DNA from: Candidatus Thiocaldithrix dubininis
GTDB lineage: Bacteria; Pseudomonadota; Gammaproteobacteria; Thiotrichales; Thiotrichaceae
Length of the DNA stretch: 64,000 nucleotides
Reading direction: 5' to 3'
Assembly (NCBI GenBank): GCA_029972135.1
Contig: CP124755.1
Coordinates: 2,351,991 to 2,415,990 of the forward strand
A model generated the notes under the pieces. That model was not told the origin of the DNA and made no database searches. It saw only the letters and a program-made list of their open reading frames with translations. How positions within the stretch are numbered: position 1 is the first letter of the stretch; each line of letters begins with the position of its first letter. Shown in pieces: positions 3-12,979 of the stretch. Both the position numbers and the translations under genes were made by a program.

Positions 3-914
3 GTTGGTTTATTAGAAGCTCATAGCACTCTATTAGTTTTAGCAAGACCAGAAGAGGCTCTAGAAATGAGGGATGAAAGTGGTATTAAAGCTGAAACAGC
101 TACTGAAGGTTATGATTTGAAAAAAGATCAAGTACACATGTCACTTGCATCTCTTAAATTTCAAAGTTTACCAATAACTTTTTTTAACTCAAGGGAAGAT
201 GATCCTAACTCATTACAGGATTTTTTAAATAGGCGTATTAAGGAAATGCGTATAGGTTTTAGGAAAAGCCTAGAGGATATTCTAAATAATACTTTAAATT
301 TAATTGATAATTTTCACACCGAGCAAATACAAGCCGTAATACAAGATGCAGCAATGCTTTTAAATACGAGTATTAATCAAAAGATAGAACTTTCAATAAA
401 AGAATCATATATAAGAAGCAGTTTATTAAATGCGATATCCCAATCACATCCGAGCACTATTAGAGCAGCAATTAGTCGTAAAGGAGATTGGGATAACCTT
501 GACTATGTTCACCATCTAAGTTACGGAGCGAGACAGGTTGCAGTACAGTCATTACAATCAGCTAAACTAGGTATTGTTGAGATATGCGACACTATGATTG
601 CGAATCCAAAACACACAGAAGCCAAAGATTTTATCGAACAATTTAAGCGTATCTTATTAACAGCTTACGAAAAATTACTAACTGAAGCTCAAACGAGAGG
701 CAAAGAGTCGTTTCGTGATCGTTTAAAAACAGAAATTTTATTATGGTCTAATTGTAGAGAAGAAAAGGGCAAGGGTTACAGAGATAGAGTTATTGATCAT
801 CATAAAAAATGGTTCGATGATGATGAGCAAAAGAAGTTAGTAAACGCCTTTTCTTCATGGTTAAATGAACAGTGGTTGGAAATCATAAAAAAACTCTCAT
901 TGTTACTAAACTAA
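3..914 (+). CDS. hypothetical protein, C-terminal part (ORF open to the window start)
   Basis: Frame 3 is open from base 3 (VGLLEAHSTLL...), with the stop at 912-914. It is visibly AT-rich compared with neighbouring cbbO. I recognise no motif. Confidence 0.5.
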   Translation, partial: VGLLEAHSTLLVLARPEEALEMRDESGIKAETATEGYDLKKDQVHMSLASLKFQSLPITFFNSREDDPNSLQDFLNRRIKEMRIGFRKSLEDILNNTLNLIDNFHTEQIQAVIQDAAMLLNTSINQKIELSIKESYIRSSLLNAISQSHPSTIRAAISRKGDWDNLDYVHHLSYGARQVAVQSLQSAKLGIVEICDTMIANPKHTEAKDFIEQFKRILLTAYEKLLTEAQTRGKESFRDRLKTEILLWSNCREEKGKGYRDRVIDHHKKWFDDDEQKKLVNAFSSWLNEQWLEIIKKLSLLLN

Positions 915-924
915 ATTTACAGTA

Positions 925-945
925 GGGTGAGCTGATAGCTCACCC
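925..945. terminator. hairpin between convergent genes (possible bidirectional terminator)
   Basis: gggtgagc-tgata-gctcaccc forms an 8-bp stem that overlaps the cbbO stop. There is no clear T-tract. Confidence 0.3.
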
Positions 946-3189
946 CGTCAACGCCATAAACACCTGCGGCAATCGCTCTGGCAAGCGCTGTACATTATCA
1001 ATCACCGTATAACGTTTGCCGAATATATCGCGCACGTATTCATCTGCTCGTGGGTCGAGGCTAATGCAGTAGGTATAAATACCTTGATTATCTAATTCTT
1101 TTACCGCTTGGCGCGTGTCCTGCGTCAATAATTGCGGGTCATCCACATCAATATCGGAGGGTTCGCCGTCGGTGAGAATTAGTAACAGTTTTTTATCGGC
1201 GTTTTGATGTTCTAAATAATGTGCGGCGTGGCGTAATGCTGCCCCCATGCGCGTAGAATAGCCCGCTTCCATTGCCGCTAAACGTCCCTTGACTTCATCC
1301 TGAAATGACTCGCGGAAGCCTTTAATATGCTGGTAGCGTACTTCGTGGCGCGTGTTGGAGGCAAAGCCTGCAATGGCAAACGGATCGCCCAGTGCTTCAA
1401 TCGCCCATGCTAATAAGGACACGGCTTCTTGGCTGAGTTCGAGGATACTTTGCGTGCAGCCTTGAGGGGTTTCGCTGATCGAGGCGGACAAGTCCAATAG
1501 CAGCATCACCGCAATATTACGCCCGTCGTGCTTATGGCTCATATTGATACGCGGGTCGGGATTTGCGCCACTTTTAAAATCAATCAGGGAACGAATCGCC
1601 ACGTCCAAATCCAGCTCACTACCTTCTTCTTGATAACGCACGCGGGTATAGTTTTGCGGCTTTAATAAATCGACAATTTGCTTGAGCTTTTTCGCCAATG
1701 CCGCATGTTTTGCCAGCAATGCATCAATATGTGCAGGGCTGCCTTGAGCGTGCAAACCTTCATACACACTCACCCAATCAGGGCGGTAGGTCTGCGTACT
1801 GTAATCCCATTCGGGGTAATGGCGCGGCGGCAAGCCTTGCACGTCGCTTTGATCGTCGCGCTGAGTTTGCTCAAAAAAGTCCTCATCATCGCTTTCCTCA
1901 ATAAACTGCCACAAATGCCGATTATCATCGCGGTACGGAATTGTGGTATCGGTAAAATACACATTCGGCAATTGATCAGACTGCAAGCGCGTTTTTGCTA
2001 CGAATGACAAGGCTAAATCGACCATTGCACGGGTAGAACTGTCGCCTTGTTGCATGAGGGCGTGAAACTGGGCGACATATTCATTAATGGTGGCATTTTG
2101 ATAGCCATGTTCAGGGTTCAAAATCGCATAGGACAACATCGCCAAACGATGGCGCAGACAGGATTCTTTGGCGGGATTACACGCACCTTCTTCTGGGCGA
2201 GGATGCAGGGCAATAAAGATACGGCGTAAGCCTTGATACTGCTGCATTGCCAAGTACTCGACGCGGCTGTCTTCCAAGCGTTCAATGGCAATGCGTTGCT
2301 GTGGGCTGAAATTATCGGCAATCACCTTTCTCGTCCAACGCTGATGCGCCGCCATGTGCGCCAATACCGCGCGATAACGGTCTATGCCGCGCACCCCATT
2401 GAAATCATCGAATACATCAGGAATACGCATACCATATTCATCAACATACGGCTGTTGTTCGCGCATATCACGGAAATCAATCGAGTACGGTACGAGGTGA
2501 TCGGTACGTTGCCAACAGGCTTGCAGATACAGATTTAGCTTGCGCTCGTGATGGGTAAATAGCGTACCTTTGCGCTCATGCTGCAACATAGCTTTACTAT
2601 CCGCCGACTCCAGCGCGAAGTACTCCTCTTGGCGCTGCGGATGTTTGCCATAATTGCGAATGCCGTATTCAATCCAATTTTTTAAACCACCCAATGCCAA
2701 TTGATTGATTAAATAAGGCATTTGCTGGAGTAGTTTAGGCAAACCTGGACTGGGAATAGTGGTATGAAAACCATGAATCGAGCCTGTGGTGCGGTTCATC
2801 ATCTCAAAAATGATTTCAATATAATGCTCAACCAATTCACGACTTCCCAAACGCCGCGCTACTTCAGGCAGCGCTTGCAAAAACGCAGGAATCGAGCGCC
2901 CATTGGGAGTACGCGACATCGTCCACACCGCTTGGCTAATGCATGTGAGCATATCCTCGCCTAAGTTGTGGGCAATATCAGGCATTTCTTCCAGATAAGT
3001 CAGTACAGGGTCAAACCCGCGCCCGATCTTGCACACCAACGATGCACCCTCGAGATAATCCCTAATCCCCTGTTCACTCAACACCGCTTGCGCATGCTGC
3101 ATACAACCCGCAAAGGCATCATCGAGCTGTTTGAAATTGCAGCTTAATTGGGTGCGATAATGAGCAAGGGCTTCGGCGGATAGCGACAT
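940..3189 (-). CDS. cbbO: RuBisCO activase subunit CbbO (von Willebrand factor A domain protein)
   Basis: 749 aa with a C-terminal VWA domain carrying a MIDAS-like LLLDLSASIS motif. The size and its co-orientation with cbbM/cbbQ fit the CbbO/NorD family. Confidence 0.85.
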   Translation of the reverse strand: MSLSAEALAHYRTQLSCNFKQLDDAFAGCMQHAQAVLSEQGIRDYLEGASLVCKIGRGFDPVLTYLEEMPDIAHNLGEDMLTCISQAVWTMSRTPNGRSIPAFLQALPEVARRLGSRELVEHYIEIIFEMMNRTTGSIHGFHTTIPSPGLPKLLQQMPYLINQLALGGLKNWIEYGIRNYGKHPQRQEEYFALESADSKAMLQHERKGTLFTHHERKLNLYLQACWQRTDHLVPYSIDFRDMREQQPYVDEYGMRIPDVFDDFNGVRGIDRYRAVLAHMAAHQRWTRKVIADNFSPQQRIAIERLEDSRVEYLAMQQYQGLRRIFIALHPRPEEGACNPAKESCLRHRLAMLSYAILNPEHGYQNATINEYVAQFHALMQQGDSSTRAMVDLALSFVAKTRLQSDQLPNVYFTDTTIPYRDDNRHLWQFIEESDDEDFFEQTQRDDQSDVQGLPPRHYPEWDYSTQTYRPDWVSVYEGLHAQGSPAHIDALLAKHAALAKKLKQIVDLLKPQNYTRVRYQEEGSELDLDVAIRSLIDFKSGANPDPRINMSHKHDGRNIAVMLLLDLSASISETPQGCTQSILELSQEAVSLLAWAIEALGDPFAIAGFASNTRHEVRYQHIKGFRESFQDEVKGRLAAMEAGYSTRMGAALRHAAHYLEHQNADKKLLLILTDGEPSDIDVDDPQLLTQDTRQAVKELDNQGIYTYCISLDPRADEYVRDIFGKRYTVIDNVQRLPERLPQVFMALTG

Positions 3190-3286
3190 ACAAACTCTCT
3201 CAGAAACAGGTGCGATGATTTTGCCTGAAGGTAGTTTAGGCGGAATGAGGGTGGGGAGGCTATATTACTGTGAGGGGTGATGGGGA

Positions 3287-4708
3287 CTAAATCATATCTG
3301 CTGGACTACGTACACTGATACCGGGCGTATTCAACACATGGGTATAAATCATCGTTGTCGATACATCCGAATGTCCCAGTAATTCCTGAACGGTACGGAT
3401 GTCGTAACCGGATTCCAGCAAATGGGTAGCGAAGGAATGGCGGAAGGTGTGCGTGGTGGCATGTTTGGTGATCCCCGCTTGTTTCACCGCCCGCCGAATG
3501 ATTTTCTGCAAACTGGTTTCATGCAGATGATGGCGACGCACCACCCCAGAACGCGGGTCAGCAGCGACACCACTGGAAGGAAACACATATTGCCAGCGTA
3601 ATTCTTTCGCTGCATTTTGGTATTTTCTCCCCAAGGCATCGGGCAGATACACCTCGCCAAACCCGTTTTTTAAGTCCATTTGATGTTGACGCTCAACGAA
3701 GGCAATTTGTTGTTTGAGGGCATCTTTGAAACGTTCGGGCAGCGGCACAATCCGATCTTTAAAGCCCTTAGCATTGCGAATCAGCAATTGGTTGTAATCG
3801 AAATCCACATCCAGAATCCGCAGGGTCACGCACTCCATGAGACGCAAACCGCCACCGTAGAGCAAGCCCGTCATTAAATGATGCGTACCTTTCAGGTGTT
3901 GGAATACGCGGCGCACTTCATCACGGGACAGCACCACCGGCAATTTACGTGGGCGTTTTGAACCGATAAAGTCGCCCAAATCATCCAGCGGCTTTTTCCA
4001 GACTTGGTTAAACAGGAACGCAAGCGCATTTAATGCCTGCTTTTGGGTGGAAACTGAGACATTGCGTTTAAGCACAAGGTATTCGAGGTATTGTTTGACT
4101 TCTTTACCGCCCAAATCATGCACGTCGTTGGGTTTGTGGAAGTAAAAAAAGCGGGCAATCCAACCGCGATAGGTTTGTTCGGTGCGCATCGCGTAATTTT
4201 TGAGGCGCACGGCTTTGACTACTTCGGCTAAGGCTGGCTGATAACGTTGGTAAAGCTCATTGGAACAACGCTCTTCACCTTCGAGCATTTCTAGCCCTTC
4301 CAGACCATTGAGGGCATCGGTGTAATCACGAGCGACAGTAGCATGATTGGCATCCAATTTTTTCGCGGACGCTGACCAGTATTCCCAATCGAAATCATTT
4401 GCCCAACTTTTTTTCAATGCCAGACAAAACAGAATCCGTATAGCATCGACGACTTGCCCGAATTGCCACGCCTTCAAGTTAACTTCACGCCCTACTTTGG
4501 TGAGATATTCCTCTACTTGTTGGGTTGTATGAGTGCGTATATGATCGTCTGGAAAGTAGGCAATATACTGCTTGGTACGCAGCACATACCACGTCACATA
4601 TTTTTGACTAACCCCCTGTTTGACAAGGAAAAGCGTGTAATTTTTCCAGAACTCATGGGAATACGAGGTTGCCCGTGTTACGGGGCTTCGTGTATGCTTC
4701 TTATCCAT
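3287..4708 (-). CDS. intI: integron integrase IntI (tyrosine recombinase) with an N-terminal extension of about 150 aa
   Basis: The C-terminal ~320 aa align by eye with IntI1: LPDALGRKYQNAAKELRWQYVFP (IntI-specific insert), DPRSGVVRRHHLHE, HTFRHSFATHLLESGYDIRTVQELLGHSDVSTTMIYTHV. Confidence 0.92.
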   Translation of the reverse strand: MDKKHTRSPVTRATSYSHEFWKNYTLFLVKQGVSQKYVTWYVLRTKQYIAYFPDDHIRTHTTQQVEEYLTKVGREVNLKAWQFGQVVDAIRILFCLALKKSWANDFDWEYWSASAKKLDANHATVARDYTDALNGLEGLEMLEGEERCSNELYQRYQPALAEVVKAVRLKNYAMRTEQTYRGWIARFFYFHKPNDVHDLGGKEVKQYLEYLVLKRNVSVSTQKQALNALAFLFNQVWKKPLDDLGDFIGSKRPRKLPVVLSRDEVRRVFQHLKGTHHLMTGLLYGGGLRLMECVTLRILDVDFDYNQLLIRNAKGFKDRIVPLPERFKDALKQQIAFVERQHQMDLKNGFGEVYLPDALGRKYQNAAKELRWQYVFPSSGVAADPRSGVVRRHHLHETSLQKIIRRAVKQAGITKHATTHTFRHSFATHLLESGYDIRTVQELLGHSDVSTTMIYTHVLNTPGISVRSPADMI

Positions 4709-4838
4709 TAATATTAGCTGAATTTTTGGGACATGCTTTATGGTAATGCCAAAATATGCGGAATTCTCTACGAACCAGATAGGTGGCGTGTGCTCACCGA
4801 TTGAGCACAGGCTTCCTATCCTGATATTCCAGAACGCC

Positions 4839-4857
4839 GCCTAATAAACTGTTAGGC
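4839..4857 (+). other. attI core (GCCTAAT-N5-G|TTAGGC)
   Basis: Inverted L/R boxes gcctaat ... gttaggc. G4851|T4852 is the inferred crossover, because TTAGGC is the reverse complement of the R'' box (GCCTAAC, 5265) of the first cassette. Confidence 0.6.
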
Positions 4858-5321
4858 CTTTTAAAAGCCGCTCTCCTGAATGTTCTCCATCTTTCAGCCA
4901 GTATCAAATCTATTGAGTTTTCGCTACCGTAGCTAATTCTGAATCCTTCGATATAGAATCACAGCATGCACCTTCCTCCTTGCAATCTATCGTCGTTAGC
5001 AACACCGCACTGCGGGGCGGGGTTACTTCATCGGCTATCCCGCCCGCAGGCTCTGTATTCCTTCGCGCCTCAATCACCTTCACTTTCTTCGACGTGTTGT
5101 TCTCCCTGCTGTCAGCGTAAAACCCTCCCTCCGAAAAACAGCCCCGCAGTGCTTCTCACTCCGGTCACAGTGTCAAGAACAACCTTCGCGTACCTCATAG
5201 GCAAAAAACCACTCCGGCAAAGTTCGCGCAGAACTCAAACTTCTGTCTTCTCGCAAGCACCTAGGCCTAACCCTTCGGTCGAGGGGACTCGCCGCAAGCG
5301 GCGAGCCCCTCACCTTGAACG
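4852..5321 (+). mobile_element. integron cassette 0 (ORF-less, GC-rich, pyrimidine-rich top strand)
   Basis: Starts with TTAGGC and ends with attC0. The only ORF (4966-5325) is low-complexity and reads through the attC. Confidence 0.65.
5265..5321 (+). repeat. attC0 (57 bp)
   Basis: R'' is GCCTAAC. An imperfect hairpin gaggggActcgcc-gcaa-ggcgagcccctc follows, and the site ends ...ccttgaacG at the crossover. Confidence 0.65.
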
Positions 5322-5508
5322 ATAGCGCAGAACCGCATACGCAGTTCTGCGCTATTGTATCGGAGTTGAGCTTCGCTCGAACGGGTTGCAGCCACCACGC
5401 TCCGCGTTCTGGCTATCAACCCATTCGAGTGGATACATTTGCGCCCATGAAGCGACTCTTCTAAAGAGTCACTTCATGGTCACAAACGCCCCACTCAACT
5501 CCGATACA
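5322..5508 (+). repeat. 187-bp structured ORF-less element, copy 1 (at the attC0 crossover)
   Basis: Base-identical to 6304-6490 and 8637-8823. It starts right after the attC terminal G and is followed by TTAGAC of the next cassette. Confidence 0.95.
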
Positions 5509-5541
5509 TTAGACAAAATTAAACACCCACGAGGATCACAA

Positions 5542-5727
5542 ATGGCAAAATATAGAGTTCACTATGATGCAACTAACCCAAATGGTAAAAGCAAAATGAC
5601 ATCTTACATTGACGTAGAAGCCGAATCAGATTTCATGGCTAATACACTTGCAGAATCTCAATTTTTCAGCCGCCATCCAACGTGTAGAGATTACACATTT
5701 AAGGCAAAGAAAATTGAGAAAAAATAG
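5542..5727 (+). CDS. small hypothetical protein (61 aa)
   Basis: ATG is preceded by a gagga RBS. The longer ORF-track version starts inside the 187-bp repeat and was trimmed. Confidence 0.5.
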   Translation: MAKYRVHYDATNPNGKSKMTSYIDVEAESDFMANTLAESQFFSRHPTCRDYTFKAKKIEKK

Positions 5728-5776
5728 ATTTTAATTAGATAATAATTTTTATTTCAACTACTTGGAGATTTCAATA

Positions 5777-6028
5777 ATGGGATTTTGGGACAAAGCTTTT
5801 GATGTGGCTAAAAATGTCGGAACAGCAGCAATGTCTGCGGTTGAGGAATCAGCTAATGAGACAAGAGAGATAAAACTCAAATGCGAAGGAAAATCTGATG
5901 ATGAATTGCTTCGCATGATTCATAGTGATGGTTTTTTTAGTAGTTCATCAAAAGAAAAAGCAATTGCTTTTAGTACGCTAAAAAGTCGTGGATATAGTGC
6001 TGAAGACATAAATGCAGCCAAACGTTAA
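5777..6028 (+). CDS. small hypothetical protein (83 aa)
   Basis: ATG is preceded by a ggag RBS. I recognise no family. Confidence 0.5.
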   Translation: MGFWDKAFDVAKNVGTAAMSAVEESANETREIKLKCEGKSDDELLRMIHSDGFFSSSSKEKAIAFSTLKSRGYSAEDINAAKR

Positions 6029-6050
6029 TTTTAACTTTAGAGAACTGAAT

Positions 6051-6206
6051 ATGGAAGATAAATGGGAATTCTATCAAGATGGTAATAATAAATGGCGTTG
6101 GAGAAGAATAGCATCAAATGGAAGAATAGTTGGCTCATCTAGTCAGGGCTATGTTAATCGCTCTGATTGTATTGATAATGCTAGACGACATGGCTATGAT
6201 GGCTAA
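6051..6206 (+). CDS. DUF1508/YegP-like small protein (51 aa)
   Basis: WEFYQDGNNKWRWRRIASNGRIVGSSSQGYVNRSDCIDNA matches the single YegP repeat pattern (WRWRL..NG..ia.S.gY.s...c..gi). Confidence 0.6.
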   Translation: MEDKWEFYQDGNNKWRWRRIASNGRIVGSSSQGYVNRSDCIDNARRHGYDG

Positions 6207-6218
6207 TTAGTATTAATC

Positions 6219-6303
6219 GTCTAACAAATCATTCGACGACGGACGCGGTGACAGCCCGCGTCTTCGTTTTATCTACTCCCCACCGCGCCCGTCAATTCAG
6301 ACG
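6219..6303 (+). repeat. attC1
   Basis: R'' is GTCTAAC. It has the conserved core tcgacgacggacgcggtgacagcccgcg ... ctactccccaccgcgcccgtca and ends cagacG. Confidence 0.85.
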
Positions 6304-6490
6304 ATAGCGCAGAACCGCATACGCAGTTCTGCGCTATTGTATCGGAGTTGAGCTTCGCTCGAACGGGTTGCAGCCACCACGCTCCGCGTTCTGGCTATCA
6401 ACCCATTCGAGTGGATACATTTGCGCCCATGAAGCGACTCTTCTAAAGAGTCACTTCATGGTCACAAACGCCCCACTCAACTCCGATACA
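6304..6490 (+). repeat. 187-bp structured ORF-less element, copy 2 (at the attC1 crossover)
   Basis: Identical to copy 1 and followed by TTAGCA of cassette 2. Confidence 0.95.
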
Positions 6491-6531
6491 TTAGCATCGC
6501 AAATAATAATGCCTCACGGATATAAACCTAT

Positions 6532-7533
6532 ATGTTGTCTAAACTAGAAAAAATACCAGATATAAATGAAGAAGCTGTAGTTGTTTATGCCTATTTACAA
6601 ATGCTGGAAAAATGGCTCAGAGAAATGGTTTACGTTGAGCTAAAAGCAAAAAAAGGAAATAGCTGGTTTAATTTTCATAAAACAAAAAATACATATGATT
6701 CAGATAAAAAATATACGCATATGTCAACCCCAGAATCTAGCCCATTAAGTTATTTGTCTTTTGGTGAATTACAAAAGCTTATCAAAAATAATTGGGAGAT
6801 TTTTTCACCATACCTACCACCACAAAACATATGGGATGCAAAGCTAGAAGAAATAGATAACATTAGAAATAGAATAGCCCATTTCAGATCATTACATGAA
6901 CAAGATTTAAATAGAGTTTTACAATTTTTGCGAGACATAGATCAAGGTTTTTGGAGATTCTGCACAAGTTATAATGATTCTTTTACGGTTCTACCAGCAG
7001 ATAATGATTCAGTTACAAACAAATTTGCTGACCTTGATCCATTTTTCCCAAAACAAATAGATGAGAAGAGATGGGTTACTGTCGGACATGCACCTCCCGA
7101 TTTGTTATATATTGTATCTATTAGAGTAATCAGACGATTATGGTGCGACACCTCAGATAAGATAGAAGGCACACCTGGCTATTTATATGATTTAAACATT
7201 GTTATTAGAGGTCAACGCCAATATGACTACAAAAGATTTCTCAGTGCATCAAAAAAACTACACTCTAAATTTGTTCATATCTGTTTAGATCATCAATCAA
7301 ATAGTATTCGGATCACCATTCCTGCAAATTATGGGAGTGAAGAAGTTATTAATATAATAGAACAGCTAATCGAGATAACGGAACACACGATAATTCCAAG
7401 TCGAGGGATAGTCGATATTGATGATACTTCAGTTAAAAAACTAGCTGATGAATGGCCTGAGTATGTGTTAAGTCCAAAGAATCCTTTGACTTTTTTAGAT
7501 TCAGAGATGCCTTGTTCTTTTTTCAATGCATAA
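6532..7533 (+). CDS. HEPN-motif protein (Swt1/Abi-like N-terminal domain) with an unknown C-terminal domain
   Basis: 333 aa. LEEIDNIRNRIAHFRSL contains an Rx4H motif in a helical N-terminal region. The gene is AT-rich. Confidence 0.55.
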   Translation: MLSKLEKIPDINEEAVVVYAYLQMLEKWLREMVYVELKAKKGNSWFNFHKTKNTYDSDKKYTHMSTPESSPLSYLSFGELQKLIKNNWEIFSPYLPPQNIWDAKLEEIDNIRNRIAHFRSLHEQDLNRVLQFLRDIDQGFWRFCTSYNDSFTVLPADNDSVTNKFADLDPFFPKQIDEKRWVTVGHAPPDLLYIVSIRVIRRLWCDTSDKIEGTPGYLYDLNIVIRGQRQYDYKRFLSASKKLHSKFVHICLDHQSNSIRITIPANYGSEEVINIIEQLIEITEHTIIPSRGIVDIDDTSVKKLADEWPEYVLSPKNPLTFLDSEMPCSFFNA

Positions 7534-7535
7534 AA

Positions 7536-7620
7536 TGCTAACAATTATGTCGACGACGGACGCGGTGACAGCCCGCGAGTTCCAACAATCTACTCCCCGC
7601 CGCGCCCGTCACACATGACG
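7536..7620 (+). repeat. attC2 (the only junction not occupied by the 187-bp element)
   Basis: R'' is TGCTAAC. It has the same conserved core as attC1 and attC3, and it ends catgacG|TTAGCG. Confidence 0.85.
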
Positions 7621-7710
7621 TTAGCGCAACAGTGCGATTTATATTAGTTGAATCAACATATTATGTTTTTTAAAAAAGTTTAAAGTATAAAAATAAATAT
7701 AGGAAAAATA

Positions 7711-8544
7711 ATGGCACAAGTGTTTATAACAAAGTCTCACTTAGAAAATATTGCACGACTAATATCCTATCAATCAATTGACGTAAATCATATACGTGGG
7801 TTTTATGAATCAAGATTTCTTGGTTTTTTTTCCACCCCAGAATTAAATACATTAACGGCCGTTAGTTTGGTTCTTGAAAGCATTAAAGATGAAGAGCTAA
7901 AGATAAAAATTATTACACTTCATGATAACGCAAAAGCTAGGATTGAAAAATATAATAAAAATGAAAATTCACGATGGATATATGTAGGATCAAAACCTGC
8001 CTATCATCATGATGAAAAGTGTATATCTCTTTACTCAACTTATGAAAACTATGAAATACCTGTGGAAATCCCGGAAGACAAAATTAAAGATTACAGAACC
8101 TTCTTCCTAAACAATATTGATGAGTATACAAATAAAAGAGATGTATTCTTTGCTAAGGTAGAATTAAAATTCAATGTCCGCATTAATAATGTTAAAGAAG
8201 TGCATAAAGAAAATAGTGGTCGGCAATCTTTAAATGTTTTCACGGGCGGTCATAAGCAAATTTTAAGTGAAATATCTAATATAATAGAAGAAATGCACAA
8301 ATATAAAAATCAATCAAATGAGGTGAAGCGTATTATTTCTAACACTGGATTTAATACAAAAAAAGCATTAAAGCATCCTCTTTATAATGAAAGCCATGAA
8401 ATTATAAGAGAATGGGATAATTATAAGACAAAGCTAAAAGACTTAATAATACAAGATTTAACTAGTATTATAGCCCCTGAGTATAAATTTGATCATGATT
8501 TTTTAGAAGAACTAGGATTTAAAAAATGTTCAAAGTGCTTTTAA
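7711..8544 (+). CDS. hypothetical protein (277 aa)
   Basis: Single long ORF filling the cassette, AT-rich. It contains YHHDEKC and a C-terminal KKCSKCF. I recognise no family. Confidence 0.6.
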   Translation: MAQVFITKSHLENIARLISYQSIDVNHIRGFYESRFLGFFSTPELNTLTAVSLVLESIKDEELKIKIITLHDNAKARIEKYNKNENSRWIYVGSKPAYHHDEKCISLYSTYENYEIPVEIPEDKIKDYRTFFLNNIDEYTNKRDVFFAKVELKFNVRINNVKEVHKENSGRQSLNVFTGGHKQILSEISNIIEEMHKYKNQSNEVKRIISNTGFNTKKALKHPLYNESHEIIREWDNYKTKLKDLIIQDLTSIIAPEYKFDHDFLEELGFKKCSKCF

Positions 8545-8552
8545 TGATAATT

Positions 8553-8636
8553 GGCTAACGAGCAGCTCGACGACGGACGCGGTGACAGCCCGCGATTTTT
8601 AATTTCTACTCCCCGCCGCGCCCGTCAGCCATGACG
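8553..8636 (+). repeat. attC3
   Basis: R'' is GGCTAAC. It has the conserved core tcgacgacggacgcggtgacagcccgcg ... ctactccccgccgcgcccgtca and ends catgacG. Confidence 0.85.
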
Positions 8637-8823
8637 ATAGCGCAGAACCGCATACGCAGTTCTGCGCTATTGTATCGGAGTTGAGCTTCGCTCGAACGGG
8701 TTGCAGCCACCACGCTCCGCGTTCTGGCTATCAACCCATTCGAGTGGATACATTTGCGCCCATGAAGCGACTCTTCTAAAGAGTCACTTCATGGTCACAA
8801 ACGCCCCACTCAACTCCGATACA
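8637..8823 (+). repeat. 187-bp structured ORF-less element, copy 3 (at the attC3 crossover)
   Basis: Identical to copies 1 and 2 and followed by TTAGAC. Confidence 0.95.
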
Positions 8824-8852
8824 TTAGACTAACTATCTCAAAAGGTGAATTA

Positions 8853-8876
8853 TTACGATTGCAATCCATCGTAATA
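8853..8876 (+). promoter_or_regulatory. inverted repeat upstream of the RHH gene (candidate operator)
   Basis: attacgat-N8-atcgtaat is a perfect 8-bp inverted repeat about 45 bp upstream of the ATG at 8922. Confidence 0.35.
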
Positions 8877-8921
8877 CGATTTAATGTCATTGGCTGTTCC
8901 CTTAAGTCAAAAGATTTAAAC

Positions 8922-9179
8922 ATGCCAAGAACAACCCTAGTCACTCGGATAGAAGTTGATCTGAAAAATCAACTGGGTGAAATTGCAAAGCAGCAGAACC
9001 GTACCACCAGCAATCTTATTGAATGGTTAGTCAAGCAGTACATTGGGCAGGTCGCCAAACCCACCAACAGCACAGCACCAGTGGAGCTTGATTTTGCATC
9101 GACAGACGACCTGCACAGCGTCCTAGCCAAGCGGCGCCCCGCCATTGCCGACACCCTCCGCTATTTAGAGGACAAATGA
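8922..9179 (+). CDS. ribbon-helix-helix (CopG/Arc-like) antitoxin
   Basis: 85 aa. The N-terminus PRTTLVTRIEVDLKNQLGEIAKQQNRTTSNLIEWLVKQY fits an RHH strand-helix-helix pattern. Its stop overlaps the next ATG (ATGA). Confidence 0.6.
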   Translation: MPRTTLVTRIEVDLKNQLGEIAKQQNRTTSNLIEWLVKQYIGQVAKPTNSTAPVELDFASTDDLHSVLAKRRPAIADTLRYLEDK

Positions 9180-9349
9180 GACTGCTGTCCACTGTGGATG
9201 TCATCCACATCCACGATACTGTTATTCACCCCCATGAGTTGCAGGGGCAAGCGCCAGACAAATCGGTGGAAGCTGTTATTACACGAGTACGAAACCGTTT
9301 TGAATACGGACTGATACCCGATGCGTTCGCGCTTGCCGCCTGTTACTGA
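9176..9349 (+). pseudogene. truncated Doc/Fic-family toxin (N-terminal 57 codons only)
   Basis: MRLLSTVDVIHIHDTVIHPHELQGQAPDKSVEAVITRVRNRFEYGLIPDAFALAACY aligns by eye with the P1 Doc N-terminus. It stops before the HxFxxxNKR Fic motif. Confidence 0.55.
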
Positions 9350-9554
9350 AGCCAGAAAAAATTTCGCCTCAGTGTTGGAAACAGCAAAGCAAGAAGGGAT
9401 TACTTGCATTTATAAACGCAATGGAGAAGCTTATTATCTTACTCCCGCAAAAACCCAAAAATCTCCGTTAGATGTGGAAGGTATAGACTTACGTCTTTCA
9501 TGCAGTCAGATTATGTCTATTCTGAGCAAAAGCAGAGAAAGAACTTACTTTTAG
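9321..9554 (+). CDS. Phd/YefM-like antitoxin with no cognate toxin
   Basis: VTEARKNFASVLETAKQEGITCIYKRNGEAYYLTP matches the Phd/YefM N-terminal pattern. Its start overlaps the Doc fragment in another frame. Confidence 0.45.
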   Translation: MRSRLPPVTEARKNFASVLETAKQEGITCIYKRNGEAYYLTPAKTQKSPLDVEGIDLRLSCSQIMSILSKSRERTYF

Positions 9555-9588
9555 TTCATTTAGCTCGCTGCCCAATTAAAAATCAGCC

Positions 9589-10389
9589 TCAAAACACCAT
9601 CTCAATCGCATGATGCAGCGTACTCCGAATATCCGCATCATCGGTAATCGGGCTAACCAGTGCCATACGGCAAGCATCTTTTTGATCAATCCCGTGTTTC
9701 ATTAAACTCGCAGCATAGACTAATAAACGAGTAGAAATCCCTTCATCCAGACCATGCCCTTTCAGATTACGGGCGGTTTGCGCAATTTGCACCAGCTTCT
9801 GAGCAGTATCCAGTTCAATACCCGCTTCTTTGCTTAAAATGCCAGCTTCGGCTTCTGGGGCGGGATAATCAAAATCGAAGGCGACAAAACGTTGTTTGGT
9901 GGATTGCTTTAAATCCTTCATCAGGCTTTGATAGCCCGGATTATAAGAAATCACCAATTGGAAATCAGGATGCGCCTGCACTAATTCGCCTTTTTTATCT
10001 AAAGGCAATGTACGGCGATGGTCAGTGAGTGGGTGAATCACGACAGTGGTATCTTGACGCGCTTCAACAATCTCATCCAAATAACAAATCGCCCCCATTC
10101 GAGCCGCCGTGGTCAAAGGGCCGTCTAACCAGCGTGTGCCATTGGCTTCTAATAAATAACGCCCCACCAAATCCGATGCAGTCATATCCTCATTACAAGC
10201 TACTGTAATTAAAGGTTTACCTAACTTCCATGCCATGTGTTCGACAAAACGCGATTTACCACAACCCGTCGGGCCTTTCACCATCACGGGTAAACGGGCT
10301 TGATAGGCAGCTTGATAAAGTGCTACTTCATTGCCAACGGCTTGATAAAACGGTTCGGTGTCAATGCGGTATTGGTTGATGTCGGTCAT
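9589..10389 (-). CDS. cbbQ: RuBisCO activase AAA+ ATPase CbbQ (MoxR family)
   Basis: 266 aa. Walker A is GPTGCGKS and Walker B is ICYLDEI. It lies immediately downstream of cbbM. Confidence 0.92.
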   Translation of the reverse strand: MTDINQYRIDTEPFYQAVGNEVALYQAAYQARLPVMVKGPTGCGKSRFVEHMAWKLGKPLITVACNEDMTASDLVGRYLLEANGTRWLDGPLTTAARMGAICYLDEIVEARQDTTVVIHPLTDHRRTLPLDKKGELVQAHPDFQLVISYNPGYQSLMKDLKQSTKQRFVAFDFDYPAPEAEAGILSKEAGIELDTAQKLVQIAQTARNLKGHGLDEGISTRLLVYAASLMKHGIDQKDACRMALVSPITDDADIRSTLHHAIEMVF

Positions 10390-10416
10390 GGCTGTGTATT
10401 ACCTAGTGAGATTAAG

Positions 10417-10509
10417 AACCCCTCCCTAACCCTCCCTTTATCAAGGGAGGGAATAGAGATCAGCAAACCTGAACGCTCCTCCCCTGACAAGGGGAGGCTG
10501 GGAGGGGTT
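10417..10509 (-). other. structured intercistronic element between cbbM and cbbQ
   Basis: Outer helix aacccctccc/gggaggggtt encloses two hairpins (10430-10451, 10478-10497). All are built from CCCTCCC/GGGAGGG. Confidence 0.5.
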
Positions 10510-10523
10510 TATACGATTTCTTA

Positions 10524-11909
10524 TTACTTATGTACGCCTAATTTTTCGCGCCAGCCGGGGAATAATTTGTCTGCGTCATTCGGGAAGGATTCAAACGCAC
10601 GCGCAAATTCTTTATGCGATTTAGCGAATTCAATCGGGTCAGCACCCGCTTTCCAGCACTCATACGATTGACGTAACGAAATCGCACCAGCGGCTGGGCT
10701 GTCGATGTGACCGTAAGAGCCACCGCCTGCGGTATTAATCACGTTACCATGACCCAAGTTTTGGAAGAAGCCGGGTAAACGTAATGCATTCATACCACCC
10801 GAAATAATCGGGGTAGTGGGTTTCATGCCATACCATTTTTGGAAGTAGACAGGCCCTTGACACTCGTCGCGTTCAATCATGTACGCAATACCTTTGTCGT
10901 CGGCTTCGCCTTCCATTTTACCGTAGCCCATAGTACCGACGTGGATACCCGAAGCCCCTTGTAAACGCGACATTTTCGCCAATACGAAAGCTGTGTAACC
11001 GCGTTTAGCCGAAGGTGACGTAATCGCACCGTGACCTGCACGATGGTAGTGTAAGTATTGGTTAGGGTATTGACGACGTGCGGTGGTAATCATACCCGGG
11101 CCGCCCACATAACCATCGACTAAGAAGGCTACTTTGTCTGCATCAGGGCCAAAGGTTTCGAGAATATAGTCCGCACGAGCACACATTTCATAATGGTCGT
11201 CAGCAGTAATATTTGCTGAGAAAATTTTGGCTTGACCCGTTTCGTCTTGGGCGCGTTTCATCGCATCCGCCACTAAAGGCATAACCTTTTTCATTGGCGC
11301 GAACACTTGGTTGCCTTGAGGCTCGTCATTTTTAATGAAGTCGCCACCTAACCAGAATTGATATGCCGCATGGGCGAATGGCTCAGGACGTAGGCCTAAT
11401 TTTGGCTTAATAATAGTACCCGCGATATAGCCGCCGTCTTTAATTGGGCGACCCAAAATACGCCACATATCAGAGATATCTTTAGACGGACCATCGAATA
11501 ATTGGATGGCACGTTCGGGTACAAAGAAGTCGATCATTTTAGCGTGTTCAATGTCACCCATGCCTTGGTTATTACCAATCACCAAGGTGAGGAAAGACAC
11601 AATCATCATACGACCATCGGTCACATTGCGGTCAAACAAATCCAAAGGATAGGCAATACGCATATCTTCAGTGGCTTCATCGATGTAGTACACCAACGCA
11701 TCCACGCCCTTAGTGAAATCATCCGTGGTACACACTTCCACGTTCGTCCCTGTGGATGATTCAGCCGCAAAGTGCGCTGCTGCTTCTAAGTAACCGTGAC
11801 CCGATTTTGGCTTCATTTTGTAAGCGACTAGAATGTGCTTACCGCCTGCCATTAATTCGTCTTCTTTTAAGCTCAAATCTGAGTAGCGTGATGATTGATC
11901 TAAAGCCAT
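10524..11909 (-). CDS. cbbM: ribulose-1,5-bisphosphate carboxylase/oxygenase, form II
   Basis: 461 aa starting at MALDQSSRY with a gaggag [17 protein letters not shown] and the overall sequence are typical of form II. The 30 upstream codons in the ORF track were trimmed. Confidence 0.95.
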
Positions 11910-12082
11910 GGTTCTCTCCTCAATAAACAACGGATGATCTGTGCGATCTCTGGGAAACGTGGAGCAGTATAAGGGAAGTCTAAAATAAGTAAAACTCATT
12001 TATACTGATTTAAACATAACGTTTTATTATGGTTATGCCTATAATCAAGCTTAATGTCGGTTATACGTGATAGCAGCCAACG
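11910..12082. promoter_or_regulatory. divergent cbbM / cbbR control region
   Basis: AT-rich divergent intergenic region. It contains the LysR-type TNA-N7-TNA candidate taacgttttatta at 12017-12029. Confidence 0.45.
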
Positions 12083-12979
12083 ATGCATATTTCCCTACGC
12101 CAAATTCAGATTTTCCAAACCGTTGCACAAACGGAAAATTTCACACGCGCGGCTGAACAGTTACACATGACCCAACCGGCAATCTCAATGCAAGTCAAAC
12201 AACTAGAAGAGCAAACAGGTTTGGCGCTATTTGAACGCCAAGGTAAACGTATTGTGCTAACTGAAGCCGGGCGTGCCATGCATCAATACACCGGCGAATT
12301 GCTTACCCAATATCAGGGCATGATAGAAACCTTGGAAGACCTGAAAAATGTACACCAAGGGCATATTCGAGTCTCGGCTGCCACCACGTCGATTTATTTT
12401 ATTACACGCTTGCTTGCTAGTTTCTCCAAACTACACGAAGGTATTACCGTTAAACTGAATATTACCAATCGCAAAACCTTGGTCGAGCAATTACAAAACT
12501 ATGAAGCCGATTTGGTCATTATGGGCGAACCCCCCGCCAATTTAGACCTACACTCCCAACGCTTAATGGCTAATCCTTTAGTGTTAATCGCCCCCCTTGA
12601 GCACCCTCTTACCCAACAAACTAATATTCCCTTAAGTGCCTTATTGCAAGAAAACTTTGTGTTACGTGAAGCCGGTTCAGGCACACGCGCCGCTATTGAA
12701 CGCTTCTTTGCCGAACACGGTTATAAGCTGCCCAGTACCTTAGAAATGGATAGCAATGAATCCATCAAATATTCGGTCATTGCGGGTTTAGGCTTAGGCA
12801 TTGTGTCTTTGCATAGCGTGCGTTTAGAACTCGAAACGCATGCATTAACACTACTTGACGTACAAGGTTTTCCACTCCAACGCCATTGGCATATTGTCAC
12901 ACGCGAAGGCAAAGCCCTCTCCCCTGCCGCCCAAGCATTTAAAGCCTATGTGATTCAAGAAGCCGCGCATTACGTATAA
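12083..12979 (+). CDS. cbbR: LysR-family transcriptional regulator CbbR
   Basis: 298 aa. The N-terminal HTH is FTRAAEQLHMTQPAISMQVKQLEE. It is divergent from cbbM. Confidence 0.88.
   Translation: MHISLRQIQIFQTVAQTENFTRAAEQLHMTQPAISMQVKQLEEQTGLALFERQGKRIVLTEAGRAMHQYTGELLTQYQGMIETLEDLKNVHQGHIRVSAATTSIYFITRLLASFSKLHEGITVKLNITNRKTLVEQLQNYEADLVIMGEPPANLDLHSQRLMANPLVLIAPLEHPLTQQTNIPLSALLQENFVLREAGSGTRAAIERFFAEHGYKLPSTLEMDSNESIKYSVIAGLGLGIVSLHSVRLELETHALTLLDVQGFPLQRHWHIVTREGKALSPAAQAFKAYVIQEAAHYV

Follow-up and report, generated by a model that had tools for sequence, protein, structure and literature searches.

Integron arrays are usually viewed as stores of useful genes, and the parasites known from their attC recombination sites are introns and insertion sequences (IS) which encode their own enzymes. 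Gene-less cassettes have also been described; they consist of non-coding DNA and a normal attC, and many of them act as promoters (10.1101/2023.11.21.568050; PMC6557892). For group IIC-attC introns and IS1111-attC elements, the insertion point is located near the 5′ end of attC (PMC3001079). Here, a 187-bp element, named E in the following, is described, which is present in three copies in the integron of Candidatus Thiocaldithrix dubininis. The analyzed stretch of DNA, referred to as the window, comprises 64,000 nucleotides (contig CP124755.1, positions 2,351,991 to 2,415,990 of the forward strand). E is a discrete unit with an exact position, cassette-like ends and a conserved fold of the bottom strand, and it occurs in multiple contexts. 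It is classified as a gene-less cassette or attC-associated mobile element, which is set apart by a hyperstable three-way junction and an altered cleavage triplet. The reading we lean towards is that of a gene-less mini-cassette which is mobilized by the integron integrase IntI and consists almost wholly of a recombination-site-like fold. A first-pass annotation had described E as an independent unit without an open reading frame (ORF) that is inserted between cassettes, and this description is supported in its essentials.

The three copies E1, E2 and E3 (Table 1) had been reported as identical, and direct string comparison returned the same 187-mer at all three places. Beyond the copies, the shared flank is limited to 3-4 nt on the left (acG) and 4-6 nt on the right (TTAG..). 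If the crossover is marked by an arrow, the junctions read gaacG↓E1↓TTAGAC, cagacG↓E2↓TTAGCA and catgacG↓E3↓TTAGAC, exactly as claimed, and the six bases following E1 and E2 belong to the respective next cassette, as they are the reverse complements of its R″ box (GTCTAAC at 6219 and TGCTAAC at 7536). On its left, every attC-flanked copy adjoins the terminal G of an attC, and on its right TTA(G), so that the crossover position of IntI (...G↓TT...) is found on both sides.

The array is arranged in the order attI, cassette 0, E1, 3-ORF cassette, E2, HEPN cassette, 277-aa cassette, E3, terminal segment and cbbQ, with three of the five junctions being occupied by E. The first-pass annotation had named 7620/7621 (gacG↓TTAGCG) as the sole empty junction; it is indeed empty, but not the only one, since the junction between attI and cassette 0 at 4851/4852 is empty as well. 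The higher GC content ascribed to E in comparison to the cargo was also found (52.9% versus 44.3% for the window and ~36% for the cassette cargo at 6001-8000). A BLAST search with E against the window yielded no fourth copy; outside the integron, ~55 kb of the window are free of E.

Contigs of the same species were retrieved by a look-up of the window proteins in public assemblies and are designated by L numbers. In these, the same downstream cassettes were found with and without E. In L057, the 3-ORF cassette, which is 99.3% identical, directly follows another canonical attC and E is absent (...tttttaacG↓TTAGACAAAAT; ...tttttaacG↓TTAGACAAAATTAAAC). In L027, the attC of the HEPN cassette is joined straight to the terminal segment (catgacG↓TTAGACTAAC), which represents the empty counterpart of E3. 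The comparison of empty and filled sites fixes the boundaries of E to the base. Furthermore, the pair of E and the HEPN cassette lies behind a different attC in L023 (aattgagacG↓E), E and the terminal segment lie behind yet another one in L067 (caactcgacG↓E), and in L072 the attC of the 277-aa cassette is followed by an IS in place of E.

In total, E occurs in seven distinct left and five distinct right contexts. Since its upstream and downstream partners vary, E is tied to neither neighbor, which agrees with the proposed independent unit lacking a target duplication. Two other explanations were rejected. E is neither a 3′ extension of the upstream attC nor a 5′ leader of the downstream cassette, as both partners vary and both occur without it, and it has not been spread by homologous recombination alone, because the right-hand junctions have only TTA(G) in common and cannot have been made in this way. 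The expected concentration of copies at integron junctions was observed, with six of the seven left contexts being the terminal G of a canonical attC; the seventh, in the metagenome contig L022, is a non-attC sequence, likewise ending in G.

Two further variants of E were identified. The integron of Thiothrix nivea carries one copy 7 kb from intI, which is 81.5% identical, follows an attC (tatgacG↓ATAGCGC...) and ends with ...CTCAACTCCGACGCG↓TTATGT. The L022 copy, which is 98% identical, ends with ...CCGAGACG↓TTAGCA, and the sequence behind it contains a cassette-like ORF. The 8-mer TGGCTTGG, which is present on either side of the L022 insert, was rejected as a target duplication, as ~9 pairs of repeated 8-mers per 1 kb would arise by chance alone. 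In addition, a copy of the T. nivea type that is broken by an IS3-like element was found in L020. The GC content of E differs between the two lineages (53% versus 66%). Judged from the conservation of its sequence across lineages at the level of separate genera, E can be regarded as an old family and not merely as a recent local burst. This age had escaped the first-pass annotation, as had the cassette-like ends of E and its stable three-way junction on the bottom strand, which are described below.

In wider searches, E had no match in a plasmid collection, only two chance 34-nt matches in a phage collection and 24 matches in viral contigs, all of them by chance. The scan of species-representative genomes gave 11 chance matches and failed to return an 18-mer which is present in T. 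nivea DSM 5205 (L004); this region or genome seems to be missing from the collection or masked in it, which limits this census. A covariance model of E revealed no further diverged copies in 195 kb of window and locus sequence. The metagenome assemblies of the clade break systematically at attI (starts of L001, L003, L018, and L075) or inside E (starts of L024-L032), and five integrase-anchored contigs end at attI, so that they do not cover the array. Due to these breaks, arrays and the copy number of E are under-represented in public contigs.

The ends of E are built like those of cassettes. Its start, ATAGCGC, is one base off the start of the neighboring 277-aa cassette (TTAGCGC, 7621), and in all three variants (window, L022, and T. 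nivea) nt 28-34 (GCGCTAT) are the exact reverse complement of nt 1-7. The first six bases of the neighboring cassettes are related to their own R″ box in the same way, and the cassette form, a TTRRRY start complementary to an R″ box of the type RYYYAA, is present with A/T replacing T/A at one position. At the opposite end, nt 187 pairs with nt 35, and the two positions change together, with a T·A pair in the window and a C·G pair in both L022 and T. nivea. The end of the L022 copy, GAGACG, resembles the local attC ends (...TTGAGACG and ...TCAGACG). The regular attCs of this integron family end with ...CCGCGCCCGTCAnnnnnGACG, and all of their junctions are G↓TT with the exception of one G↓TC; G↓AT is contributed solely by E. 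As the junction of the attC-flanked copies coincides with the scissile position of IntI and the ends of E mimic R′ and R″ boxes, movement by IntI seems to be the most economical explanation.

The minus strand is the bottom strand of the cassettes and therefore the strand that integron integrases recombine. On this strand, E is predicted to fold into a 34-nt hairpin (hairpin 1) and a 15-bp stem (P1), the latter closing a three-way junction with two long arms (A and B, Table 1). Hairpin 1 comprises 12-15 bp, with 15 pairs being 100% paired in the three variants, and within it nt 1-7, the R′-like remainder, pair with the R″-like nt 28-34. Over the whole fold, 81 pairs are 98.3% paired across the three variants, compared to at most 42% after a shift of the partners by 1-3 columns. 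Compensatory double changes among the three sequences were seen in eight pairs, which was reached in 1 of 500 shuffles. In P1, 3 of 16 pairs carry double changes, and its outer 4 bp are hypervariable with compensation (TGTATC/GATACA in the window, CGTCTC/GAGACG in L022, CGCGTC/GACGCG in T. nivea). The final base of E is A in the window copies, whereas L022 and T. nivea have G at this position. The window and L022 variants differ at five positions, four of which make up two compensated pairs within the four bp beside the crossover.

Furthermore, the window copy contains nine wobbles, which are all G·T or G·U pairs on the minus strand and never on the plus strand, while no A·C pair occurs on the minus strand. 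The predicted DNA folding energy amounts to -75.5 kcal/mol (z = -16.7) for the minus strand and to -62 kcal/mol for the plus strand. Taken from the sequence comparison, the fold of E appears to be under selection on the strand which integrases recombine. The wobble asymmetry and the lower energy of the bottom strand lend indirect support to E as a candidate for recombination by IntI in the form of a folded bottom strand.

Based on this, a route of movement can be proposed. E would be excised as a circle, in which the junction would read ...GAGAC(G/A)↓ATAGCGC. On the bottom strand of this circle, hairpin 1 would stack on P1 as a continuous 27-bp helix with the crossover in its middle, accompanied by the two long arms. 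Here, nt 1-7 would pair with nt 28-34 like the R′ and R″ boxes of the neighbors, and nt 187, which lies before the crossover, would pair with nt 35. IntI would cut the bottom strand of the E helix and of the resident attC at the usual phosphodiester (the G↓TT position of the top strand), one strand would be exchanged and the product would be resolved by replication. The resulting insertion, attC-G↓ATAGCGC...E...(G/A)↓TTAG-next cassette, would be free of a duplication.

For IntI1, it was reported that the second triplet position tolerates change and that exchanging T2 for A2 together with its complement (GAT) even raised recombination, whereas an unpaired second position lowered the recombination frequency ~370-fold, from 2.2 × 10^-3 to 6 × 10^-6 (PMC2811028). 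The first triplet position has to match in both partners, otherwise recombination is 10^3-10^4-fold lower (PMC2811028). The triplet of E, GAT/ATC (AAT/ATT in the window), would leave the second position unpaired in both hybrid sites. For a G↓AT circle, as expected for the T. nivea and L022 types, insertion into G↓TT sites should be easy, and its excision from the hybrid sites should be poor. By analogy to IntI1, this lower re-excision would act as a ratchet, by which copies build up and remain joined to the cassette downstream. Since a cargo function is not detectable, E would most simply be a selfish or structural mini-cassette.

The conserved GTT/AAC triplet of gene cassettes is not found in E, whose circle would be joined as G↓AT in T. 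nivea and L022 and as A↓AT in the window. Several findings weigh against a mini-cassette moved by IntI. With A at the first triplet position, the window variant would be expected to recombine poorly with canonical sites, and yet it sits at three or more junctions. From the crossover, the fold runs through 15-16 unbroken bp and shows neither the unpaired central spacer nor the extrahelical bases of a canonical attC; the local canonical attCs have internal loops and bulges and reach -18 to -20 kcal/mol (z = -2 to -2.9). With 160-187 nt compared to ~57-141 nt, E is longer than canonical attCs, and its folding energy is ~4 times that of the local ones, whose stability is moderate. In addition, the L022 copy is preceded by non-attC DNA, 48 nt past the stop codon of a truA-like gene (...cattctG↓ATAGCGC), and the family is known from three sequence variants only. 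Due to the deviations in triplet, unpaired features, length and stability, E is not classed as a canonical attC; in operational terms it behaves as a cassette, being present or absent as a discrete unit between the same neighbors and recurring in several contexts. The A↓AT variant, the missing spacer and extrahelical bases and the extreme stability also keep an unlinked single-strand transposase or a relaxed specificity in this clade of integrases under consideration.

Tentatively, E might represent an undescribed type of integron parasite, i.e., a protein-less, self-folding unit of single-stranded DNA which is a recombination site only. Such a parasite would hijack IntI or a structure-specific enzyme without the bulges of attC, and the change of its triplet, first to GAT and then to AAT, would have brought easy insertion and hard excision or a private specificity in the array of its host.

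It is rather improbable that E is a non-autonomous transposable element of single-stranded DNA, similar to the palindrome-associated transposable elements (PATEs) derived from IS200/IS605 or to repetitive extragenic palindrome doublets forming hairpins (REPINs), and moved by an unlinked HUH or other transposase. Elements of this type have subterminal hairpins and a fixed target of 4-5 nt on the 5′ side of the left end, and they are dispersed through the genome. This enzyme would read the hairpins of E, target the folded bottom strand of attC and insert 3′ of ...TAA on that strand with no duplication, and the coincidence with the IntI site would reflect a shared target structure. The absent target duplication and the strand-specific hairpin architecture are consistent with this, as is the finding that each copy on the bottom strand follows TAA (CTAA or ATAA) and ends with CTAT. 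The lack of the unpaired features of canonical attCs would need no further explanation, A instead of G at the first triplet position would be irrelevant to such an enzyme, the L022 copy lies outside an attC, and the junction is targeted by an IS5/IS1182-like IS, too (attC ...gacGTT↓, at least four sites). However, in all contexts E is inserted at precisely the phosphodiester used by IntI, whereas the IS found there lies at an offset and generates a duplication of ~3 bp. The resemblance of the ends of E to R′ and R″ boxes and to the local attC ends would be without reason in a transposon, and E as a whole is closed on itself by the 15-bp stem, whereas separate subterminal hairpins and their guide sequences would be expected for such an element. 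Copies are also missing from the non-integron part of the window, and among the 20 window ORFs scanned neither an HUH nor another transposase gene was found; intI encodes the only recombinase detected there.

A structured non-coding RNA, transcribed from the minus strand as the cargo of a degenerate ordinary cassette, appears still less probable. Being antisense to the cassettes, it could regulate, e.g., toxin-like neighbors or intI. Promoters, small RNAs and regulator-binding sites have been discussed for gene-less cassettes (10.1101/2023.11.21.568050). The RNA folding energy is -128.7 kcal/mol (z = -16.2) for the minus strand versus -105.2 kcal/mol for the plus strand, the wobbles would all be G·U on the minus strand, the fold shows covariation, and E is 81% conserved across lineages in which its neighbors are unrelated. 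However, G·T wobbles are equally expected in a folded bottom strand of DNA, and the fastest-evolving compensated pairs adjoin the crossover, which fits a recombination site better than an RNA. Neither a sigma-70-like promoter, in E or shared beside it on either strand, nor an intrinsic terminator was found, and the three copies differ in sequence on the side where a minus-strand promoter would lie. With gathering thresholds, Rfam 15 returned just two tRNAs for the whole window and no family for E; even at E-values of up to 10, nothing was found over 3000-9500, including any intron or ribozyme signature in E. A search of E for transfer and transfer-messenger RNAs was negative. As consensus hits for promoters and intrinsic terminators inside E are absent, its role as a promoter cassette or terminator is unsupported. 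The claimed lack of coding capacity was reproduced, as E contains no conserved ORF and no transposase and its T. nivea homologue shows single-base indels. A fragment of a group II intron or a small ribozyme, suspected from a long integrase ORF and GC-rich structured DNA by E1, was rejected, since the ORF encodes the integron integrase and Rfam remained empty at the same relaxed threshold.

Finally, E is unlikely to be a module serving its host, i.e., a cruciform or hairpin tuning the folding and excision of the adjacent attC, or a cassette insulator, which IntI spreads and selection for array stability keeps: it does split the R′ box of the upstream attC (TT to AT), which by the IntI1 data should weaken that site, in many metagenomes it is linked to the HEPN cassette and to the terminal toxin-antitoxin segment, and it was retained long-term in two lineages while its GC content shifted with the host, but the upstream cassettes are what varies in the population, which would not be expected of a stabilizer of the upstream cassette, and a selfish element that is simply hard to excise would account for these data equally.

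The setting of E is the chromosomal integron of a Thiothrix-like bacterium. Its integrase shows 79% identity to a protein of T. nivea DSM 5205 and 75% identity to a protein designated 'integron integrase' of a Thiolinea metagenome-assembled genome. It carries an N-terminal extension of ~150 aa with a second SAM-like stretch, and among the top 120 listed homologues, most share this long form with full coverage. At NCBI, the T. nivea orthologue is labeled 'TetR family regulator', which looks like a misannotation. Upstream of intI, seven relatives (L001, L003, L004, L016, L017, L018, and L019) share the conserved motif ...AA(C/T)AAAC(T/A)G↓TT, and on this basis the attI crossover of the window was placed. 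Cassette 0 starts with TTAGGCC, the reverse complement of GGCCTAA (5264-5270), and ends with an attC-like hairpin; this attC, which precedes E1, differs in type from the others of the array. Cassette 0 is GC-rich, contains at most one unsupported ORF of 119 aa, and its fold is not unusual (z = -2.6). The terminal segment has several different upstream neighbors in the population.

The integron (3287-9560) is located between a gene for a CbbO-like protein with a VWA domain (940-3189) and the genes cbbQ and RuBisCO large subunit (9589-11999), the latter being followed by a LysR regulator gene at 12083. The array appears to split the cbbQ/cbbO pair. In L058, no cbbQ gene was called beside RuBisCO. 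The GC skew of the plus strand is negative across 1-64000, and most of the large genes at 33-61 kb are located on the minus strand. From skew and gene orientation, the bottom strand of the attCs and of E is probably the lagging-strand template and would be single-stranded at each replication.

Table 1. Features of the integron, of element E and of an IS found at attC ends (window coordinates unless a contig is named; an arrow marks the crossover).
Feature	Position	Strand	Description
intI	3287-4708	-	Integron integrase, long form of ~470 aa; Pfam Phage_integrase and Phage_int_SAM_4
attI core	4840-4858	+	Crossover G4851↓T4852 (CTAATAAACTG↓TTAGGCC); junction unoccupied
Cassette 0	4852-5321	+	Gene-less; 57-nt attC at 5264-5321, R″ GGCCTAAC (5264-5271), end gaacG at 5321
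E1	5322-5508	- (selected fold strand)	Between gene-less cassette 0 and 3-ORF cassette; covariance model 207.9 bits on the minus strand
Hairpin 1 of E1	5322-5355		nt 1-34; stem ATAGCGCAGAAC / GTTCTGCGCTAT, 10-nt loop; predicted folds
Stem P1 of E1, 5′ arm	5356-5370		nt 35-49; TGTATCGGAGTTGAG; pairs with 5494-5508
Arm B of three-way junction	5376-5429		nt 55-108; consensus fold
Arm A of three-way junction	5431-5492		nt 110-171; near-perfect long hairpin; 4 compensatory pairs in the consensus fold
Stem P1 of E1, 3′ arm	5494-5508		nt 173-187; CTCAACTCCGATACA; final base is position 1 of the crossover triplet
3-ORF cassette	5509-6303	+	Canonical attC at 6219-6303
E2	6304-6490	-	Between 3-ORF cassette and HEPN cassette; identity and covariance model
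HEPN_Swt1 cassette	6491-7620	+	Pfam; attC at 7536-7620; junction 7620/7621 empty
277-aa cassette	7621-8636	+	attC at 8553-8636
E3	8637-8823	-	Between 277-aa cassette and terminal RHH/toxin-antitoxin segment; identity and covariance model
Terminal segment T	8824-9560	+	RHH, PhdYeFM-like antitoxin, truncated Fic region; without attC; array end, just before cbbQ
IS5/IS1182-like IS	L062 100-1887; L025 1246; L072 49 and 1069; L071 123; L019 ~179-1781 (reverse)		

Other mobile elements were found in such arrays, too. An IS of ~1.79 kb with the ends GAGGCTGTAGAAAAACCC (DUF772 and DDE_Tnp_1/DDE_Tnp_1_6; IS5/IS1182-like) occupies the 3′ ends of four or more different attCs (Table 1). Its junctions read ...gacGTT↓IS↓(G/T)TTAG, and it looks like an IS that targets the R′ box of attC with a duplication of ~3 bp, at a position unlike that of the IS1111-attC group. 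E was rejected as a miniature inverted-repeat transposable element (MITE) of this IS, because the ends are unrelated and the IS duplicates its target. In L058-L060, L064, and L065, near position 2900, the attC upstream of the terminal segment ends with ...cccgtcacacGAGGCT↓TTAGAC instead of ...catgacG↓TTAGAC. As GAGGCT corresponds to the first six bases of the IS, this is possibly a scar of its excision or deletion. In addition, a related integron of a Thiolinea metagenome-assembled genome (L017, 453-8100) contains three group II intron copies, 97-100% identical to each other, on the bottom strand (RVT_1 and GIIM, 442 aa). They lie between beta-lactamase-like, AadA-like and methylase cassettes and occupy a niche that is shared with E.

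In view of integrons as gene stores, E suggests a 187-bp unit consisting of a fold only, which multiplies within the array and has survived in two genus-level lineages with a triplet other than GTT. If IntI moves E, the cassette system would be open to minimal 'site-only' replicators. E would then be a natural case of an altered specificity for the cleavage triplet, for which mutagenized IntI1 substrates have been the only evidence so far, and a natural test of how far a working attC can depart from the bulged-hairpin model. Furthermore, repeats of the E type break metagenome assemblies at integrons, and models for attC detection may miss them or misplace cassette boundaries.

Compared with the known attC-targeting elements, E was found to be distinct, as the first-pass annotation had claimed. 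Like group IIC-attC introns and IS1111-attC elements, it resides in integron arrays, is specific for attC, is associated with the bottom strand and lacks a classical target duplication. However, these introns and IS1111 elements are ~1.5-2 kb in length, encode their own enzyme and use the 5′ end of attC, whereas E comprises 187 bp without an enzyme at the 3′ crossover. It is therefore no group IIC-attC intron, having neither an ORF nor an Rfam hit, and an IS1111-attC element or a MITE of the IS110/IS1111 type with a bridge-RNA-like end is not supported in view of the missing transposase, the missing match in the plasmid and phage collections and the other position in attC.

With MITEs, REPINs and PATEs, E shares its small size, the lack of a protein, 15-bp inverted repeats, a highly palindromic sequence and multiple identical copies. 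In contrast to them, it shows no target-site duplication, no related parent IS and a three-way junction which is kept by compensatory change, and in the available data copies occur at integron junctions only. The 15-bp repeat is subterminal on one side (nt 35-49 and 173-187), unlike that of a MITE, and the ends of the co-resident IS are unrelated.

A functional likeness is offered by the attP(+) site of phage CTX-phi, in which a forked single-stranded DNA hairpin of ~150 nt forms a duplex site for XerCD. One strand is exchanged, replication resolves the product, and the integrated form is a poor substrate for excision. The enzyme system and the target (dif instead of attC) differ, and E is not part of a phage. 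A dif/Xer-like site in the junction helix of E was rejected, since in a comparison by eye the resemblance to E. coli dif was limited to the central TGTATC, and this part varies between copies.

The comparison with attC itself shows the same logic of an imperfect palindrome, a bias toward folding of the bottom strand, a complementarity of the R″/R′ type across the crossover and a sequence that varies under a conserved structure, with GAT or AAT in place of the GTT triplet. From the gene-less cassettes of the sedentary chromosomal integrons of Vibrionaceae and of the Treponema and oral metagenome integrons, E differs in that only ~20 nt lie outside its site-like fold, in the lack of a promoter consensus, in its GAT/AAT triplet and in the hyperstable branched fold without the bulges of attC. 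In common with these cassettes, E is bounded by integrase crossovers, non-coding, present or absent at a given junction and found in multiple copies.

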